A stretch of DNA of 64,000 nt, taken from assembly GCF_030384885.1 (NCBI RefSeq), contig NZ_CP128613.1; one strand, written 5' to 3'. Both the position numbers and the translations under genes were made by a program. This stretch comes from Escherichia coli (GTDB lineage Bacteria > Pseudomonadota > Gammaproteobacteria > Enterobacterales > Enterobacteriaceae). Positions 1,199-57,166 of the stretch are shown piece after piece. Positions within the stretch are counted from its first letter, which is position 1, and every line of letters begins with the position of its first letter. The notes below the pieces were generated by a model, which saw only the letters and a list, made by a program, of their open reading frames with translations, was not told the origin of the DNA and did no database searches.

Positions 1199-1498
1199 TT
1201 AACCGCGAAGCTGTTGTTGCTTGAGGGTTGTTTTCACCAGACGCCAGGCGCTCCATACACCAAAACCGCGTCTGGCCCAGCGGACCAGCATATTGGGATG
1301 ACGAATCGTCCAGATAGCCATCACACTACTGCCAACCAGCGCCCAGGAGCGCAGACTCAGCAGCATATTCCAGCGACGATCATAAGCGCCTGTCGCCTCC
1401 AGCCATTCACGACGACTGGCGGAAAGATCCAGCCGTTGTTGCTGGATCTGGCTAAGCAGTTGCGCCTTACGTCGTTCACGTTCGACTTTACTGCTCAC
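1199..1498 (-). CDS. yqjK: small membrane protein YqjK (99 aa, GTG start)
   Basis: The frame of track ORF 1199..1636, started at the GTG at 1498 (VSSKVERERRKAQLL...), gives 300 nt, which is 99 aa plus stop. It overlaps the yqjE stop by 11 nt, consistent with operon coupling. Confidence 0.75.
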   Translation of the reverse strand: MSSKVERERRKAQLLSQIQQQRLDLSASRREWLEATGAYDRRWNMLLSLRSWALVGSSVMAIWTIRHPNMLVRWARRGFGVWSAWRLVKTTLKQQQLRG

Positions 1499-1892
1499 GG
1501 GACTCCTCCTCGAGCAGTTGCCGATCGTTTGCCAGCTCATGGCGCGTATGGCGCAGTAAGGTGGATTTACGCGATTTACGTAACGTCCAGATACCGCCAA
1601 TGAGTGCCAGTAGCAGCAACACCACGGTGGTGGCAATCATCGCATTCAGGCGATATTGCGGATCAACCGCCCAGATAATCAGCACCATCAGGCTCATAAG
1701 ACCAAATGCAGCGAAAAGCATCGTCAGGCCCAGCATCAGTAAAAGCTGAAAGAGATTGGCTTTTTCCTCTTCCAGCTCCACCACCGCCAGCCGCAGACGT
1801 GTCTCCACCATTTCAACCATGATGGAAACAATTCGCTGCCCGATGCCCAGAACGCTTTTACCGGGCCCTTGCGCGTGATGAGTGTCCGCCAT
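1488..1892 (-). CDS. yqjE: inner membrane protein YqjE (134 aa)
   Basis: The ATG at 1892 (MADTHHAQGPGKSVLGIGQRIV...) lies within track ORF 1488..1961. The length matches the remembered YqjE. Confidence 0.85.
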   Translation of the reverse strand: MADTHHAQGPGKSVLGIGQRIVSIMVEMVETRLRLAVVELEEEKANLFQLLLMLGLTMLFAAFGLMSLMVLIIWAVDPQYRLNAMIATTVVLLLLALIGGIWTLRKSRKSTLLRHTRHELANDRQLLEEESREQ

Positions 1893-1894
1893 AA

Positions 1895-2200
1895 TTAACG
1901 ACGCGACAGCAGAACGCCGAGCACTACACCGATTGCAGCGCCAATGCCTACGCCCGTCCACGGATTTTCACGCACATACTCATCGGCACGCGCCGCCGCG
2001 ACACGGGTTTGTTTGGCAATGGCATCACCGGTTTCACCCAGGCGATAACGGCTCTGTTTCAGTGCCTGCTCCGCTTTGCTACGAATCTTACTCAACTCTT
2101 CTTTCGACTTCTCGCCAGATGAGCTAAGCACCTCTTCCAGCGTATCGGAAAGGGATTTCAACTCAGCACGCAGATGTTCCGTAGTGTGTTCTTTCGACAT
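1895..2200 (-). CDS. yqjD: ribosome-associated membrane-anchored protein YqjD (101 aa)
   Basis: Track ORF MSKEHTTEHLRAELKSLSDTLEEVL... with a C-terminal TM segment. Matches the ElaB/YgaM/YqjD family. Confidence 0.9.
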   Translation of the reverse strand: MSKEHTTEHLRAELKSLSDTLEEVLSSSGEKSKEELSKIRSKAEQALKQSRYRLGETGDAIAKQTRVAAARADEYVRENPWTGVGIGAAIGVVLGVLLSRR

Positions 2201-2237
2201 AGTTTTCTCCAGGTGAGTAAGTAGTGACTATTGTGAG

Positions 2238-2606
2238 TTAGTAGTCGCGCGCTTCCAGCTTTTTCAGCTCTTCCTGCGCTTCTGCCAGTTTCCGTTCGCG
2301 TTTGGCAATCTTATCGGCATCGCCTTTTTGCTTCGCCTCGGCTAAATCTTGCTGGCGTTCCGCCACCTCATCTTTCTGCTTTGCGATTTTCTTCTGATGA
2401 TCGGCACGCAGCTGGCTATCTGAACAGTTGGCCCGGACTTCACTCAGGGCTTTATTCAGACCGTCAATACGATTCTGGTTTTGGTGTTTTTCGGCATAGC
2501 TGATCTCCTTAAGGATATTTTGCTCCTTTTCCTGACACAGGGTAGTGGCATAACTACCGGTACTAAGAGCAAAAAGAGAAACAGCTAAAGCGATGCGGTA
2601 TTTCAT
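2238..2606 (-). CDS. yqjC: periplasmic protein YqjC (DUF1090, 122 aa)
   Basis: The ATG at 2606 (MKYRIALAVSLFALSTGSYA, signal-peptide-like) lies within track ORF 2238..2621. Confidence 0.85.
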   Translation of the reverse strand: MKYRIALAVSLFALSTGSYATTLCQEKEQNILKEISYAEKHQNQNRIDGLNKALSEVRANCSDSQLRADHQKKIAKQKDEVAERQQDLAEAKQKGDADKIAKRERKLAEAQEELKKLEARDY

Positions 2607-2752
2607 TCTTGAACCTTCCATTGTGATTCGGACCTATTACAAAGGAACGATTGTCCAGACAACGAAGCGGTAGTGTTGACCACCGCCTCATTAATCATAG
2701 ACAGTTACGGTGAAATCACCAAAGTGAGTGATCTGTTTCGGATAACAGGAAG

Positions 2753-3136
2753 TTATCCGAAGCGATGAGAGTTATCCCGCAATCGGGTTAGCCACTGCAT
2801 AGCCTGACTATTATTGTCCTGCTGCGCAATGATGTAGCCATGGGGCAATGTTCTGTCGAGAACCGCTTTTGCTGCGGCACTCTGGTCGCTGGAGTCAAAC
2901 GTAATTAACAGAGTGTCGTTTTTAGGGGTGATGCTTTTGAAAGGAATGCCGTGAGCGTCAAGGTGATGCCAGATTGAAAAACCGTCTGGCATCGTTGTGC
3001 CTTGATGAACGGCACGAATCGCCAGCGTAGACTCTTGCTGGCGAACCGCGGACCAGGCCAGCAACAGCGTGCCGACCAGAAGTAAAACAGCGCCGGACCA
3101 GGTTAGCTGGCGAAGCGACATGCGAGGTATTTGCAT
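2753..3136 (-). CDS. mzrA: MzrA, modulator of the EnvZ/OmpR system (127 aa)
   Basis: Track ORF of 127 aa with an N-terminal TM segment. Position and length match yqjB/mzrA, immediately downstream of yqjA. Confidence 0.85.
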   Translation of the reverse strand: MQIPRMSLRQLTWSGAVLLLVGTLLLAWSAVRQQESTLAIRAVHQGTTMPDGFSIWHHLDAHGIPFKSITPKNDTLLITFDSSDQSAAAKAVLDRTLPHGYIIAQQDNNSQAMQWLTRLRDNSHRFG

Positions 3137-3139
3137 CCC

Positions 3140-3802
3140 TTACCCCCGATTTCCATATTTCTTTTTCCATAACACGACCAGAGAACCTGCCAGGCCAAAC
3201 ACCAGCAGCACCACCGGGAGCAGCATCAGGCATGACATCAGCTGGTCCTCGTACTTTAAAAATACCGGCGTTTTGCCGAGCATGTAACCCAGAGTTGTCA
3301 GGATTAATACCCACAGCAGACCGCTCATCCAGTTGAAGAACTGAAAGCGCGCGTTATTCAGCCCTGATAACCCGGCAATCGTCGGCAGCAGTGTTCTGAC
3401 AAACGCAATAAAGCGACCAATTAACAGCGCCGATAAACCGTGTTTATGAAAAAGATGGTGTGCGCGTTGATGATAATGCGCGGGTAAATGAGATAGCCAG
3501 TTTTGTACGGTGCGGGTATTGCCCAGCCATCGCCCCTGAATATAGCTGACCCAGCAGCCGAGGCTGGCGGCAACGGTCAGAAGCAGAATCGTTTGCGGAT
3601 AGCCCATCGCGCCTTTCGCAATCAATACGCCGACCAACACCAGTAAACTGTCGCCCGGTAAAAAGGCCGCCGGAAGCAAGCCGTTTTCAAGGAACAAAAT
3701 TACAAATAAAACAAAATAGAGCATGCCAATCATCGACGGATTGGCCAGGGTTTCAAAATCCTGCGCCCACAGGGCTTGCAGCAATTGGGTCAAAAGTTCC
3801 AT
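3140..3802 (-). CDS. yqjA: DedA-family inner membrane protein YqjA (220 aa)
   Basis: Track [36 protein letters not shown]... is a multi-TM DedA-family protein of the expected length. Confidence 0.92.
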
Positions 3803-50297: not shown

Positions 50298-50918
50298 TTA
50301 GTTCATCCAGCGATCTTTACGTTTGCGCGTTGGGATCAGGTGCGGCAGTACCAGACCGAGCAGCAAGCCAAGCCCCAGCACGCCGCCACCATACATAAAC
50401 CACTGCATGATGATGGTGCGCTGTTTGTCATCCAGCTGTACGCTGGCGGCATCGACCTTTTTCTGCGCGACAATCAGCTCGTTTTTCAGTTTCTGATTTT
50501 CTTCTTTTAACCCGTTGATCACGCTGTCGCTCTGCGCCACTTTTTGCTGCATTTCTGCGGTGCGCTGATTCCAGGTGTTATCGATATTGGTGAGCTTATC
50601 GGTCAGGGTTTTGACCTGATTTTCCAGATCTGGCACACGGGAGCGCAGGCTTGGCTCTGTGCTAAGTTGTTTCAACGGGATCCAGGCGGTACGGCCAGAG
50701 CTGTCTTTCACCTGGGCATAATTGGTGTTGGCATCAGTTTGTAATAAGGTCACTTCCTCGCCGGCGTTAACCGTGCCCACGAGGCGATAATGGTCTCCCG
50801 GACCGCTACGGACCCAGGTATTCAGTTCGTCGGAAACATAGCGCGTTTCTTCAGCGTGTGAGACGGCAGTCGCGCTAAGTGCGAGTAAAGTTAATCCGAT
50901 CAGGCGTAATTTTGGCAT
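50298..50918 (-). CDS. ygiM: SH3-domain protein YgiM with a C-terminal membrane anchor (206 aa)
   Basis: Track ORF MPKLRLIGLTLLALSATAVSHAEETRYVSDELNTWVRSGPGDHYRLVGTV... Confidence 0.9.
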   Translation of the reverse strand: MPKLRLIGLTLLALSATAVSHAEETRYVSDELNTWVRSGPGDHYRLVGTVNAGEEVTLLQTDANTNYAQVKDSSGRTAWIPLKQLSTEPSLRSRVPDLENQVKTLTDKLTNIDNTWNQRTAEMQQKVAQSDSVINGLKEENQKLKNELIVAQKKVDAASVQLDDKQRTIIMQWFMYGGGVLGLGLLLGLVLPHLIPTRKRKDRWMN

Positions 50919-51139
50919 CAGGCTGTCGTTATTGTCATGGAAAGTGGAACGATAGTAGTGGCATCAGTGTCGCTACGCAAAGCATTCGACATCAATCGGA
51001 ATCCTCTGTGTCAGGTCTTGCCACTGCTTCAAACTTTTACGCCCGTCAAATTGCCCGTTGCATGGCAATTTGGCGCAAAATACTATCTACTGACAAAAAA
51101 GATCGCATTAAGTTCGCCGTTCATCGTCACTTATGTGAC

Positions 51140-51380
51140 ATAACCGATAAGTAAAGGCTTTGACATCCTCCCCCACCTTCGCGCAAAGCGACTCAGGAGG
51201 GGGATTCCCTTGTCAGGGTAGCAATACGTTGCCGCATTGCCCGGTTCCTCGCTCGACGGCTTACGCCGCCTTACGGGCGCGTCCTTTACGGACTGACGGC
51301 AATATTTGTCCTGCCGCCATGACTTCAAAACCTGCTGTTAATATATTTCGAGCGCCGTTTACATCGGCGTTTGCCGTATA
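51140..51380 (-). ncRNA. predicted TnpB-associated omega/right-end RNA (scaffold overlapping the tnpB 3' end, plus guide in the flank); limits are guesses
   Basis: Downstream of the tnpB stop, the minus strand carries stacked hairpins (gcaat-N10-attgc, ccct-gaca-aggg, and the atccccctcc...gggggaggat right-end hairpin). TCAA and flanking DNA (agcctttacttatcgg...) follow. The placement follows established IS200/IS605 TnpB biology. The RNA itself is not demonstrated. Confidence 0.3.
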
Positions 51381-52466
51381 GCCGCACGCGGTACAGATAA
51401 AGCTCGCCTGCGCCCTGCGGTTAATTTTCGATGTATGCCCACAACATGCGCATTTCTGACTGGTGTACGCCGGATTAATCGCCAGCACATCACCGCCGCG
51501 CCATGCCTGCTTATATTCGAGCTGGCGGCGCATTTCTGCCCAGCCCTGATCCAGTATCGCTCGGTTAAGACCTGATTTTGCCGCGACGTTGCGCCCCGGC
51601 TGGTCTACCGTACCCGCTGCTGATTTTGACATGTTCGAAACCTTTAAATCCTCAATGACTATCATCGCGTGGTTTTTGCTGATCGTCGTCGTGGTTTTAT
51701 GAAGGTAATCGCGGCGGATGTTTGCGATATGAGAGTGGAAACGGGAAATCTTCGCTTTCTGCTTTTTCCAGTTGGCGGAGAATTTAACCTTCCGGGCCAG
51801 ATGGCGCTGTAAGCGAGCCAGCTTATCCTGATTTTTTTTAAAGCTGTTTACCGGTTCAAAGATCGTGCCGTCTGAAAGTGTTGCCAGCTTCGTTATACCT
51901 GCATCCAGGCCTATTGCGCTGGTCGATGCGTGAATCGGATCGGTAACAGCTAATTCGACCTGAAAAGACACATACCAGTGTCCGGCATGCTGGCTGATGG
52001 TGCAATTTTTAATGACGCCTTCAATCTTCCGGGACTGACGAAATTTAACCCAGCCCAGTCCTGACGGGAGTTTCACACGGCCATAATCCAGCCCACAATA
52101 TTTGCTGAAATTGACGAACCGGATAGAGTCGCAGCCTTTGGTTTTCTTTTTGAAAACGGGCTTTTCAGCCGTCAGGGATTTATCAAAACAGCGATCCCAT
52201 GCGCTCCGCAGGTCTTTCAGTTTCTGCTGGAGGTTGTCAGTGTAACCCTCAGCAAGAAAGGCCAGCTCAGGGAGTTTTTTCCAGCCCGTAAGTCGTTTAT
52301 TCAGGTCGAAAGCTGACGGAATTTTTCCGCCCGCGTCATGAATGCTCAGTGTTTCATTCAGTGCATAGTTCCAGACAAAGCGAGCGCAACCGCACAACTG
52401 ACGCAACCTTTGCGCCTGCTGGTCAGTGGGGTAGAGCCTGTATTTATATGCTTTCTGGATTAACAT
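51261..52466 (-). CDS. tnpB: TnpB (OrfB_IS605) RNA-guided endonuclease, 401 aa, catalytic residues apparently intact
   Basis: MLIQKAYKYRLYPTDQQAQRLRQLCGCARFVWNYALNE... The RuvC-I region is IGLDAGITKLATLSDG and the RuvC-II region is MIVIEDLKVSNM. The zinc finger is CACCGH...CTACGY and the RuvC-III region is ADVNGARNI. Confidence 0.9.
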   Translation of the reverse strand: MLIQKAYKYRLYPTDQQAQRLRQLCGCARFVWNYALNETLSIHDAGGKIPSAFDLNKRLTGWKKLPELAFLAEGYTDNLQQKLKDLRSAWDRCFDKSLTAEKPVFKKKTKGCDSIRFVNFSKYCGLDYGRVKLPSGLGWVKFRQSRKIEGVIKNCTISQHAGHWYVSFQVELAVTDPIHASTSAIGLDAGITKLATLSDGTIFEPVNSFKKNQDKLARLQRHLARKVKFSANWKKQKAKISRFHSHIANIRRDYLHKTTTTISKNHAMIVIEDLKVSNMSKSAAGTVDQPGRNVAAKSGLNRAILDQGWAEMRRQLEYKQAWRGGDVLAINPAYTSQKCACCGHTSKINRRAQASFICTACGYTANADVNGARNILTAGFEVMAAGQILPSVRKGRARKAA

Positions 52467-52532
52467 TTTGCATTCAGTATGTGGTTATTTAGAATGTACA
52501 ATATATCCACATTTTTTTGGGAGGATCAATAC

Positions 52533-52931
52533 GTGTGCGAAATCAATCGTTCACGCTATTCAGCTTACCTGTTGCATGTTCACGTTGTTTTTATGACAAA
52601 ATACCGCCGTCCAGTTTTTGGTGAATTGCATCATGCAAACATGCGTCAGTATGTAGCGGAGGTATGCGCGGACTTTGGCGCCGAGTTAAAGGAATGTGAC
52701 GGCGAGGCAGATCATGTTCACATGCTGATTGAATACCCACCGTTGGTGCAACTCACAAAGCTGGTAAACAGCCTTAAGTCCGTTACCAGTAGGCGGCTGC
52801 GGAATGATTTTATTGATTTGCGCGCCGCGTATTCAAAGCCCGTACTCTGGTCACGCTCTTATTTCATCGGTTCATGTGGTGGAGCACCGCTGGAAGTTGT
52901 GAAAAAGTATATTCAGAATCAGCGTGGCTGA
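52533..52931 (+). CDS. tnpA: IS200/IS605 TnpA, Y1 HUH single-strand transposase (132 aa from GTG 52533; the track ORF starts at 52479)
   Basis: ...YLLHVHVVFMTKYRRPVF...GEADHVHMLIEYPP (HUH motif) ...WSRSYFIGSCGGAPLEVVKKYIQNQ (catalytic Tyr). GGGAGGA at 52518..52524 sits 8 nt before the GTG. Because the start codon of the divergent tnpB lies 12 nt from 52479, a start at 52479 is unlikely. Confidence 0.85.
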   Translation: MCEINRSRYSAYLLHVHVVFMTKYRRPVFGELHHANMRQYVAEVCADFGAELKECDGEADHVHMLIEYPPLVQLTKLVNSLKSVTSRRLRNDFIDLRAAYSKPVLWSRSYFIGSCGGAPLEVVKKYIQNQRG

Positions 52932-53001
52932 TAAACTGCGGGCTTAACAGCCCAAATTCCCCTCCCGCCTACGTTGGGGGGGAGTACCCAGTGGAGGAAG
53001 G

Positions 53002-54303
53002 ATGGCTCAGGAAATCGAATTAAAGTTTATTGTTAATCACAGTGCCGTTGAGGCGTTGCGTGACCATCTCAATACGCTGGGCGGCGAGCACCATGACCCC
53101 GTGCAGTTGCTGAATATTTACTACGAAACGCCGGATAACTGGTTGCGTGAACACGATATGGGCTTACGTATTCGTGGCGAAAACGGCCGCTATGAGATGA
53201 CCATGAAAGTCGCTGGAAGAGTGACTGGCGGTTTACACCAGCGCCCGGAATATAACGTGGCGTTGAGCGAACCGACGCTCGACCTGGCGCAGTTACCGAC
53301 GGAAGTCTGGCCGAACGGCGAATTGCCTGCCGATCTCGCTTCCCGCGTACAACCGCTGTTCAGCACCGATTTTTATCGCGAAAAGTGGCTGGTGGAACTC
53401 GATGGCAGCCGAATTGAAATCGCTCTCGATCAGGGCGAGGTGAAGGCGGGCGAATTTGCTGAGCCTATCTGCGAGCTGGAACTGGAGCTGCTTAGCGGCG
53501 ACACGCGCGCGGTGCTGAAACTGGCGAACCAACTGGTATCGCAAACCGGATTACGCCAGGGCAGCCTGAGCAAAGCGGCGCGTGGCTATCATCTGGCGCA
53601 GGGCAATCCCGCGCGTGAAATCAAACCCACCACCATTTTGCATGTTGCGGCAAAAGCTGATGTGGAACAGGGGCTGGAAGCGGCGCTCGAGCTGGCGTTA
53701 GCGCAATGGCAGTATCATGAAGAACTCTGGGTCCGCGGCAACGATGCGGCGAAAGAGCAAGTGCTGGCTGCCATTGGCCTGGTCCGTCATACGCTGATGC
53801 TGTTCGGTGGCATTGTGCCGCGTAAAGCGAGCACTCACTTACGTGACCTGCTGACTCAATGCGAAGCGACCATCGCATCTGCGGTATCTGCCGTGACGGC
53901 GGTCTACTCTACCGAAACGGCGATGGCGAAGCTGGCGTTGACCGAATGGCTGGTAAGCAAAGCCTGGCAGCCGTTTTTAGATGCCAAAGCGCAGGGCAAA
54001 ATCAGCGATTCCTTCAAACGCTTTGCCGATATCCATCTTTCCCGCCATGCCGCTGAACTGAAAAGCGTTTTCTGCCAGCCGTTGGGCGATCGCTACCGTG
54101 ACCAGCTGCCACGCCTGACGCGTGACATTGACTCAATATTGTTGCTGGCGGGTTACTACGATCCTCTTGTCGCGCAAGCCTGGCTGGAGAACTGGCAGGG
54201 ACTGCGTCATGCCATTGCGACCGGGCAACGCATTGAAATTGAACATTTCCGTAATGAGGCAAACAATCAGGAACCGTTCTGGTTGCACAGCGGAAAACGT
54301 TAA
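53002..54303 (+). CDS. ygiF: inorganic triphosphatase YgiF (CYTH + CHAD, 433 aa)
   Basis: Track [52 protein letters not shown]... Confidence 0.94.
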
Positions 54304-54325
54304 TCAGCCAAGGATAAAATCGCTT

Positions 54326-57166
54326 ATGAAGCCGCTCTCTTCACCGTTACAGCAGTACTGGCAGACCGTTGTTGAGCGGCTGCCAGCGCCTTTAGCCGAG
54401 GAATCACTTAGCGCACAGGCGAAGTTAGTACTTACTTTTAGTGATTTTGTGCAGGACAGCGTAATTGCGCATCCAGAGTGGCTGACGGAACTGGAAAGCC
54501 AGCCGCCGCAGGCCGACGAATGGCAGCATTACGCTGCATGGTTGCAGAAGGCGCTCAGTGATGTAAGCGACGAAGCAGGGTTAATGCGCGAGCTGCGTCT
54601 GTTCCGGCGGCGCATTATGGTGCGCATTGCCTGGGCGCAAACGCTGGCACTGGTTACTGAAGAGAGCATATTGCAGCAGCTCAGCCATCTGGCGGAGACA
54701 TTGATTGTCGCCGCGCGTGACTGGCTGTATGAGGCCTGCTGTCGCGAGTGGGGAACGCCGTGCAATGCGCAGGGTGAAGCGCAACCGCTGCTGATTTTAG
54801 GCATGGGTAAACTGGGCGGCGGGGAGCTGAATTTTTCCTCAGATATCGATCTGATTTTTGTCTGGCCGGAACATGGTTGCACGCAGGGCGGACGCAGGGA
54901 ACTGGATAACGCTCAGTTCTTTACCCGCATGGGTCAGCGGCTGATTAAAGTGCTGGATCAACCAACGCAGGATGGTTTTGTTTATCGCGTGGATATGCGA
55001 CTGCGTCCGTTTGGCGAAAGTGGCCCGCTGGTGCTGAGCTTTGCGGCACTGGAAGACTATTACCAGGAGCAGGGGCGCGACTGGGAGCGATACGCCATGG
55101 TCAAGGCGCGGATTATGGGCGATAGCGACGGCGTCTATGCTAACGAGTTGCGTGCGATGCTGCGCCCGTTTGTTTTCCGCCGTTACATCGATTTCAGCGT
55201 CATCCAGTCGCTGCGCAACATGAAAGGGATGATTGCCCGTGAAGTACGTCGTCGTGGTTTGACCGATAACATCAAACTTGGCGCGGGTGGCATTCGCGAA
55301 ATTGAATTTATCGTTCAGGTGTTCCAGCTCATTCGCGGTGGGCGCGAGCCGTCGCTGCAATCCCGCTCTTTACTACCCACTCTCAGCACCATTGCCGAGC
55401 TGCATCTGCTTTCTGAAAACGATGCCGAACAATTGCGAGTGGCGTATCTCTTCCTGCGGCGTCTGGAAAATCTGCTGCAAAGCATTAACGACGAACAAAC
55501 TCAGACGCTTCCTTCTGATGAGCTTAACCGTGCGCGGCTGGCGTGGGCGATGGACTTTGCTGACTGGCCGCAACTGACCGGGGCGCTGACCGTACATATG
55601 ACCAATGTGCGCCGGGTGTTTAATGAATTGATTGGCGACGACGAAAGCGAAACTCAGGAAGAGTCGCTGTCGGAACAGTGGCGTGAGCTGTGGCAGGATG
55701 CGTTGCAGGAAGATGACACTACGCCAGTGCTGGCGCATCTTAGCGAAGATGATCGCAAACAGGTGCTGACGCTGATTGCTGATTTCCGCAAAGAGCTGGA
55801 TAAGCGCACTATTGGGCCGCGAGGACGTCAGGTGCTCGACCATCTGATGCCGCATCTGCTAAGTGATGTCTGTGCGCGTGAAGACGCTGCTGTCACGTTG
55901 TCGCGCATTACCGCCTTGCTGGTGGGGATTGTCACCCGTACGACCTATCTTGAACTGCTTAGTGAATTCCCTGCGGCGCTTAAACATTTGATTTCGCTGT
56001 GCGCCGCATCGCCGATGATTGCCAGCCAACTGGCGCGTTATCCGTTATTACTGGATGAACTGCTCGATCCAAACACTCTCTACCAGCCGACGGCGACCGA
56101 TGCTTACCGTGATGAGTTGCGCCAGTATTTGCTGCGCGTGCCGGAAGATGACGAAGAACAACAGCTTGAGGCGCTGCGTCAGTTTAAACAGGCGCAACTG
56201 TTACGTATTGCGGCAGCGGATATTGCGGGTACGCTGCCGGTAATGAAAGTGAGCGATCACTTAACCTGGCTGGCAGAAGCCATGATAGATGCTGTCGTAC
56301 AACAGGCATGGGTTCAAATGGTTGCCCGCTACGGTAAGCCAAATCACCTGAACGAACGCGAAGGGCGTGGTTTTGCGGTGGTCGGCTACGGCAAGCTGGG
56401 CGGCTGGGAGTTAGGCTACAGTTCCGATCTTGACCTGATCTTCCTCCATGATTGCCCAATGGATGCGATGACTGACGGCGAGCGGGAAATCGACGGGCGA
56501 CAGTTTTATCTGCGTCTGGCGCAACGCATTATGCATCTGTTCAGTACGCGAACCTCTTCCGGCATTTTGTATGAAGTGGATGCTCGACTGCGTCCGTCCG
56601 GGGCGGCGGGAATGCTGGTCACCTCTGCAGAAGCGTTTTCCGATTATCAGAAAAACGAGGCCTGGACGTGGGAACATCAGGCGCTGGTGCGTGCGCGTGT
56701 AGTGTACGGCGATCCGCAGCTCACCGCGCACTTTGACGCGGTGCGTCGCGAGATTATGACGCTGCCGCGTGAAGGTAAAACTCTGCAAACGGAAGTGCGG
56801 GAAATGCGCGAGAAAATGCGCGCTCATCTCGGCAATAAACATCGCGATCGCTTTGATATCAAAGCCGATGAAGGCGGAATTACCGATATCGAATTTATTA
56901 CCCAATATCTGGTGTTGCGCTACGCTCATGAAAAACCGAAGTTAACGCGCTGGTCAGACAACGTGCGTATTCTGGAGCTGCTGGCGCAAAACGACATTAT
57001 GGAAGAGCAGGAAGCGATGGTGCTGACCCGTGCTTACACTACGCTGCGCGATGAACTTCATCATCTGGCATTACAGGAATTGCCGGGCCATGTGTCGGAG
57101 GATTGCTTCACCGCAGAGCGTGATCTGGTGCGGGCAAGCTGGCAGAAGTGGCTGGTGGAAGAATGA
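54326..57166 (+). CDS. glnE: glutamine synthetase adenylyltransferase/adenylyl-removing enzyme GlnE (946 aa)
   Basis: The ATG at 54326 ([33 protein letters not shown]...) gives 2841 nt. The 1014-aa track ORF is an upstream extension into ygiF. Confidence 0.97.

Follow-up and report, generated by a model that had tools for sequence, protein, structure and literature searches.

An intact, single-copy IS200/IS605-family element with a CCAT target and a candidate guide RNA between ygiM and ygiF of Escherichia coli

Introduction

What occupies the interval between ygiM and ygiF in some Escherichia coli chromosomes, where exactly does it begin and end, what does it recognize as its target, and is it still moving? 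We addressed these questions in a window of 64,000 nucleotides (the whole stretch of DNA that we analyzed) from E. coli contig NZ_CP128613.1 of RefSeq assembly GCF_030384885.1, in which the gene order is bacA-cca-ygiM-[element]-ygiF-glnE and two divergent reading frames, tnpB and tnpA, occupy the ygiM-ygiF interval. A preliminary description of this locus had proposed an apparently intact IS605-like element with a candidate omega-RNA, and had called the insertion probably recent and possibly active. We conclude, with high confidence, that the interval holds an intact single copy of a catalogued element of the IS200/IS605 family (ISEc41 family in RefSeq) that would work by a mechanism typical of its family. 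The element is thus of a known kind and not novel; what our analysis contributes are its exact ends, a CCAT target with a covarying guide, and a picture of its place in the E. coli population.

Results

An intact IS605-group element with exact boundaries

The element and its adjoining flanks are 100% identical to those of E. coli strain 2013C-4282. At this locus in 2013C-4282, CFT073, Nissle 1917, ATCC 25922, and others, RefSeq names the two products "IS200/IS605-like element ISEc41 family transposase" and "RNA-guided endonuclease InsQ/TnpB family protein." Its principal features are as follows.

51160..53001, minus strand: complete IS200/IS605 element (IS605 group, ISEc41-family label), 1842 bp
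51261..52466, minus strand: tnpB, 401 aa, RNA-guided endonuclease family, with D188/E272/D368 and C339, C342, C358, C361
52479..52931, plus strand: tnpA as annotated, 150 aa, with HUH = H79-V-H81 and catalytic Y144 (150-aa numbering)

The boundaries were fixed by comparison with chromosomes that lack the insertion. An 80-mer joined from both flanks matches ~455 empty-site E. coli genomes at 80 of 80 positions (the figure is 603 records at at least 99% identity minus 146 carriers, which match the 80-mer in halves only). E. coli K-12 has no element between ygiM and ygiF, as had been proposed earlier, and its empty site is equal in length to the 80-mer and differs from it by one single-nucleotide polymorphism. 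The insertion is therefore a clean one of 1842 bp with no target duplication, and it lies 3' of a CCAT, the outcome of the empty-site alignment that the preliminary description had called for. Both boundaries are also set by the loss of homology in 15 to 17 independent related copies. The functional "top" strand of the element is the minus strand, with the left end at 53001 and the right end at 51160, and on this strand the junctions read ...CCTGAGCCAT / CCTTCCTCC...GATGTCAA / AGCCTTTACTT... The span first proposed, 51160 to 52985, was exact at 51160 and fell 16 bp short at the other side, where the true boundary is 53001.

The element has no terminal inverted repeats and combines a Y1 HUH TnpA, an accessory tnpB, same-strand subterminal hairpins, and duplication-free insertion at a tetranucleotide, the features by which the IS605 group is defined. 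Besides the element itself, the window holds no other copies or remnants of the right-end or left-end motifs at up to 3 mismatches.

End hairpins, internal guides, and the target

The ends carry the following signals.

51160..51163, minus strand: right-end tetranucleotide TCAA, the last bases of the element, predicted cleavage site
51170..51203, minus strand: right-end imperfect subterminal hairpin CCCCCTCC...GGTGGGGG with a T.T mismatch; compensatory changes in relatives
52952..53001, minus strand: left end, tip CCTTCCTCC (plus-strand tip GGAGGAAGG at 52993-53001)
52962-52984, minus strand: left-end imperfect hairpin CTCCCCCC...GGCGGGAG; compensatory changes in relatives
52985-52988, minus strand: presumed left guide GGTA, the 4 nt directly 5' of the left hairpin
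53002..53005, minus strand: target tetranucleotide CCAT, host DNA, predicted TnpB target-adjacent motif (TAM)

The hairpins at the two ends are related to each other, imperfect, C-rich/G-rich, and both on the minus strand, much as had been noticed from the letters alone. The right-end hairpin, which is preceded by GAAT at 51204-51207, folds as DNA with -13.3 kcal/mol (z -2.55). The reading of TCAA as the right-end terminus is borne out by all 17 related right ends, which terminate in ...GGAGGATGTCAA, also written ...GGTGGGGGAGGATGTCAA, and lose homology directly thereafter, giving way to unrelated flank; the terminus is common to 44 distinct right ends from elements whose TnpB identity reaches down to ~45%.

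Published structures of the IS608 transposase provide the rule by which such ends are read: an internal guide beside the hairpin pairs with the cleavage site, and at the right end GAAT goes with TCAA. In the element in the window, the left guide GGTA is complementary to the target CCAT position by position. Fourteen of 15 independent related insertions likewise lie 3' of CCAT, the exception being a CCAC accompanied by a GGTG left guide, and upstream of CCAT the flanks become unrelated in 14 of the 15 copies. A sister clade, represented by elements of Yersinia ruckeri, Morganella, and Erwinia tracheiphila, combines TTAC with AAAG and TTAT with AAAA. Left guide and target thus covary between clades (GGTA:CCAT, GGTG:CCAC, AAAG:TTAC, AAAA:TTAT) while the right end, GAAT...TCAA, stays constant. 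This covariation argues that the internal 4-nt guides would read the cleavage sites, and it shows that a changed left guide moved the clade of this element from TTAC to CCAT.

TnpB and TnpA

TnpB matches the Pfam families OrfB_IS605 (1.9e-30), Cas12f1-like_TNB (1.6e-23), and HTH_OrfB_IS605 (5.1e-19), scores 355 bits against the NCBIfam profile guided_TnpB (cut-off 100), and aligns end to end with the TnpB of ISDra2 (8exa/8h1j; E 7e-49). In that alignment the RuvC triad corresponds to D188, E272, and D368 and the zinc finger to C339/C342...C358/C361, in agreement with the three acidic motifs and the CxxC...CxxC pattern already read from the 401-aa translation. Seven E. coli copies of tnpB differ by 13 nonsynonymous and 8 synonymous changes, from which we estimate, at low power, a dN/dS of roughly 0.5. 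The TnpB of the window has two private changes relative to the six other copies, I348 (others N) and I202 (others V), encoded at 51424 and 51863; neither residue is catalytic, and I348 lies inside the zinc finger, after the first CxxC pair and before the second.

TnpA is a Y1 HUH transposase (Pfam Y1_Tnp, E 1.4e-39; NCBIfam IS200, 139.5 bits against a cut-off of 55). When it is aligned with IS608 TnpA (2a6m; E 1.5e-20), its HVH matches the HUH motif and its Y144 the catalytic tyrosine, so both signatures claimed for it at the outset are in place. With the domains, the catalytic residues, and the ends all present, the initial view of an intact element with divergent TnpA and TnpB holds.

The annotated start of tnpA is probably 18 codons too early. 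Its ATG at 52479 is only 12 nt from the tnpB ATG, the match to the NCBIfam IS200 profile covers the 150-aa form only from residue 23 onward, and related elements encode a shorter TnpA. The intervening DNA contains these features.

52467..52532, no strand assigned: divergent promoter-like region from the tnpB ATG to the probable tnpA start (consensus scan only)
52467-52495, plus strand: promoter-like TTTGCA-17-TAGAAT (consensus scan)
52529-52500, minus strand: promoter-like TTGATC-18-TATATT (consensus scan)
52520-52525: GGAGGA (sequence)

Together, the divergent promoter-like hexamers, GGAGGA, and an in-frame GTG at 52533 suggest a TnpA of 132 aa, for which that GTG would probably be the true start. 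Downstream of GTG 52533, tnpA shows zero nonsynonymous changes among the seven E. coli copies.

A candidate omega-RNA and its predicted guide

TnpB is an RNA-guided nuclease (PMC8612924), and its guide RNA was expected at the 3' end of tnpB together with the right end. Two features describe the candidate.

51160..51325, minus strand: predicted omega-RNA scaffold, the tnpB 3' end plus the 101-nt untranslated right end; 5' limit approximate
51144..51159, minus strand: predicted 16-nt guide AGCCUUUACUUAUCGG, host flank immediately 3' of the right end, assigned by position only

The tnpB stop codon lies 101 nt from the right-end tip. In a comparison with a plasmid-borne relative (overall identity ~75%), conservation is much higher in these untranslated nucleotides than in the coding part. 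The minus-strand RNA from 51160-51325 folds into six hairpins with -80 kcal/mol (z -5.1), and the right-end RNA of the plasmid relative folds into the same architecture. In a consensus structure of 11 related sequences, 94.4% of cells pair, versus 38 to 47% in slid controls, and nine pairs are changed on both sides, versus zero to two in the controls; these covariation figures come from only 11 sequences, which are related, in a region that is partly coding and whose terminal hairpin doubles as a DNA signal for TnpA. The 44 distinct right ends, again down to a TnpB identity of ~45%, keep both the terminus GGAAUCC-hairpin-GGAGGAUGUCAA and, farther upstream, a GAAGCAGGAACC motif. A conserved and strongly structured region with compensatory changes is what a guide (omega) RNA would look like, and the region proposed in the preliminary description is probably one.

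The 20-nt flank after the right end, 51140-51159 on the minus strand, reads AGCCTTTACTTATCGGTTAT, precisely as had been written when the guide was first placed there. We predict that the guide is AGCCUUUACUUAUCGG, that the target motif is CCAT, as taken from insertion sites only, and that the natural target is the vacant site left by excision. Position 51159, with which the guide begins, varies among genomes: the window has T there (plus strand), whereas six other carriers and K-12 have C. Empty sites show both alleles (T in ~455 genomes, with most others assumed to be C). Within the window we found no CCAT-flanked self-target for the predicted guide, and in the literature searched we found no paper combining TnpB, TAM, and CCAT.

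The scaffold also varies in its parts. A middle hairpin, GGACGCGCCCGUAAGGCGGCGUAAGCCGUCGAGCG, is common to the E. coli element and a copy on plasmid pYS1718-1 (window 51160-51260, alignment columns 80-125), at a place where other relatives have a GCCUGUGGAG...CCGAUGAAGC module; since one replaces the other, the scaffold is modular.

A stable, lineage-associated insertion in E. coli

Among 5,426 complete E. coli genomes, 146 carry a copy of the element at at least 99% identity, in one place in every listed genome; they include CFT073, Nissle 1917, ATCC 25922, and ABU 83972. The ygiM-ygiF site is interrupted in exactly 146 genomes, and these matching counts place all copies at ygiM-ygiF. No plasmid carries a copy at at least 99% identity, the plasmid matches in the E. 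coli search being relatives at 60 to 90%. The insertion is absent from 97% of genomes, it is not strain-specific, and there is no sign of current movement in E. coli, where neither several copies nor different sites, the marks of a mobile element, were found.

In pairwise comparisons of seven copies, the element differs by 0.2 to 0.9%, the left flanks by 0.25 to 3.25%, and the right flanks by 1.25 to 5.3%. Starting ~130 bp past the left end, carriers show mosaic ygiF haplotypes. Over the 1.2 kb tested, none of the empty-site genomes matched the CFT073 flanks completely; LF82 came closest, at 99.8%. The insertion postdates the deep flank alleles, from which recombination has uncoupled it. The view that it is probably recent and possibly active finds no support here, given one copy per genome at the same site by counts in 146 of 5,426 genomes with none on plasmids, copies that differ by 0.2 to 0.9% beside flanks that differ by up to 3 to 5%, and the lack of an empty-site genome equal to the CFT073 flanks. 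We regard the element in E. coli as a stable, lineage-associated, single-copy insertion that is not actively spreading. Every copy examined retains all catalytic residues, the hairpin and cleavage site of each end, and two intact reading frames.

The neighboring ygiF-glnE segment (window 53002-56001) is unusually variable in E. coli: its identity to the window is at least 99% in one genome (2013C-4282), 95 to 99% in 4,012, and 90 to 95% in 1,412.

The junction with ygiF

The left end of the element directly abuts the ygiF ATG at 53002, and the CCAT target, read on the opposite strand, is ATGG: the start codon of ygiF and the base that follows it. Because the element tip GGAGGAAGG stands directly before this ATG, the ribosome-binding sequence of ygiF in carriers, and its whole 5' region, would be element-derived. 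The tip, which is invariant in seven E. coli copies while the tips of relatives are unrelated (CTTTTCTTC and CTTAAATGC, minus strand), is thus a putative ribosome-binding sequence of ygiF. A consensus scan found no plus-strand promoter-like site between the tnpA promoter-like site and ygiF.

Relatives and known systems

Relatives of the element have inserted at a number of separate sites in Aeromonas media, "Ca. Pantoea multigeneris," Yersinia ruckeri, and Erwinia tracheiphila; because relatives in other genera are multi-copy and differently placed, the family as such is mobile. In the nearest relatives from other genera, TnpB is 71 to 79% identical in amino acid sequence. Relatives on large Klebsiella, Escherichia, and Citrobacter plasmids share 74 to 77% nucleotide identity, the best full-length plasmid match being 77%. 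The plasmid relatives and the chromosomal ones of Aeromonas, Ca. Pantoea, and Xenorhabdus have the same architecture, CCAT target, and right-end terminus as the element in the window, but under the customary identity thresholds they count as separate IS species. They are also present in several copies or on plasmids, in contrast to the chromosomal element of E. coli with its single copy at one fixed site. Close copies on phages were not found, phage matches reaching at most ~70% over the full length.

Among the known systems, the element resembles IS608 (ISHp608 of Helicobacter pylori) in its Y1 HUH TnpA, in having neither inverted repeats nor target duplication, in its imperfect subterminal hairpins on one strand, in the right-end order GAAT...hairpin...TCAA, and in a left guide complementary to the target. 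It differs in that tnpA and tnpB are divergent, as in IS605 itself, while the genes of IS608 are co-directional, and in using CCAT with GGTA where IS608 uses TTAC with AAAG, the pair also found in the sister clade. Its TnpB resembles that of ISDra2 from Deinococcus radiodurans (8exa, 8h1j, 8bf8) in the full-length alignment, with the RuvC D-E-D and zinc finger kept, and in the candidate RNA at the tnpB 3' end and right end with its guide in the flank, although the RNA in the window is a prediction. The two are set apart by the predicted target motif (CCAT versus TTGAT), by the divergent orientation relative to tnpA, and by an insertion in the window TnpB, ~15 aa long, that follows the E motif and precedes the zinc finger.

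Several observations on relatives stand apart from the locus itself. Relatives are found on more than 2,000 plasmids, mostly of Klebsiella. Plasmid pYS1718-1 (1461-3790) holds a complete related element beside a second related tnpB with its own right end, together with a zinc-ribbon fragment, an arrangement that suggests repeated or nested insertions. Escherichia phage If1 (U02303.1 / NC_001954.1, 5318-7137) holds a relative that is ~70% identical over 93% of its length and is annotated only as ORF348 plus intergenic regions; If1 is a filamentous, single-stranded-DNA phage.

Discussion

By the biology of its family, the element would work as follows. TnpA would excise and insert the minus strand as single-stranded DNA ("peel and paste"), and TnpB would bind a guide RNA that is processed out of the tnpB transcript at its 3' end, a molecule made up of the scaffold (~51160-51325) and ~16 nt of flank, AGCCUUUACUUAUCGG. 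The complex would then cut the vacant site, CCAT followed by AGCCTTTACTTATCGG, that excision would create, and repair from the sister chromosome would restore the element, which would thereby be retained. Cutting of the vacant site by TnpB with retention of the element has been described previously (PMC10055086).

Several points weigh against this account of a catalogued, working element. The name ISEc41 is taken from the RefSeq/PGAP product name alone, and in the literature searched ISEc41 is named only within insertion-sequence lists, functional work on it not being found. No second copy or other insertion site exists at at least 99% identity in the 5,426 E. coli genomes. Constraint on tnpB appears relaxed, as judged from the 13:8 ratio of nonsynonymous to synonymous changes. 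A permissive Rfam scan of 50800-53300 returned zero matching families, and the conservation of the terminal hairpin could be explained by the need of TnpA for single-stranded DNA alone.

We weighed three rival explanations. The element may be an immobilized, effectively fixed relic that no longer transposes in E. coli and persists either as neutral DNA or because it supplies the 5' region of ygiF-glnE (with the left end as 5' untranslated region and ribosome-binding sequence, perhaps also with a promoter by read-through from tnpA), TnpB and its RNA being decaying passengers. The single copy per genome at ygiM-ygiF (by matching counts) in 146 genomes, the failure of any empty-site genome to match the CFT073 flanks, and the tnpB substitutions all fit such a relic, as do the tip GGAGGAAGG before the ygiF ATG, invariant in seven copies unlike the tips of relatives, and the lack of a plus-strand promoter-like site from the tnpA promoter-like site to ygiF. 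We nevertheless consider it unlikely: the catalytic residues, hairpins, cleavage sites, and reading frames are intact in all copies examined, tnpA has not a single nonsynonymous change downstream of GTG 52533, precise excision would restore the normal ygiF upstream region, leaving no obvious dependence on the element, and retention by TnpB itself predicts a stable single copy. That the right-end structure is needed only as single-stranded DNA for TnpA, no functional guide RNA being made, is very improbable. The terminal hairpin and TCAA are, to be sure, exactly what TnpA needs in IS608 and the most conserved part of the region, and the empty Rfam scan is consistent with this explanation. According to published work, however, IS608 TnpA needs only a subterminal hairpin and a short adjacent sequence at each end, whereas conservation and compensatory pairs here reach more than 100 nt upstream of the subterminal hairpin, through helices 2-5, into the untranslated region and the tnpB 3' end. 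The GAAGCAGGAACC motif is moreover kept across clades, and TnpB, by sequence catalytically intact, aligns over its full length with the TnpB of ISDra2, a user of such an RNA (PMC8612924).

The third explanation is a chromosomal, population-level gene drive, in which TnpB and its guide RNA would cut the vacant allele (CCAT plus GGCC/AGCCTTTACTTATCGG) and the element would be copied from incoming DNA into the same site across divergent lineages. TnpB gene drive has been reported for plasmids (10.1101/2025.02.20.638934). At our locus, a drive would fit element copies that differ by 0.2 to 0.9% beside flanks that differ by up to 3.25% (left) and 5.3% (right), the mosaic ygiF haplotypes of carriers from ~130 bp beyond the left end, and a vacant site (CCAT plus the 16-nt match) that is conserved species-wide in both 51159 alleles. 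Ordinary recombination, however, yields the same pattern in a hypervariable region (only one genome is at least 99% identical in ygiF-glnE), and most of the 146 listed carriers are CFT073-, Nissle-, or ATCC 25922-like, as clonal descent would have it. TnpB-assisted homing is not needed to explain the divergence of element and flanks, and we consider a drive improbable; a lesser variant of it predicts simply that TnpB recognizes the unusual, non-T-rich motif CCAT. An intact, catalogued element with a mechanism typical of its family thus remains our preferred reading.

The discovery value of the locus is low, since the element is already catalogued and it is established for the family what TnpA, TnpB, and the guide RNA do. 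A gene drive, if true, would explain element differences of less than 0.9% beside flank differences of 3 to 5%. In carriers, ygiF-glnE may be translated, and perhaps transcribed, from element-derived sequence. Exact ends, a CCAT target, and a predicted guide are now defined for an element of the much-used strains CFT073, Nissle 1917, and ATCC 25922, which with it probably harbor an RNA-guided nuclease of their own that would target ygiM-ygiF when vacant. The clade to which the element belongs illustrates how altering the 4-nt left guide moves insertion from TTAC to CCAT, and a TnpB that recognizes CCAT would modestly widen the range of target motifs available for genome editing.

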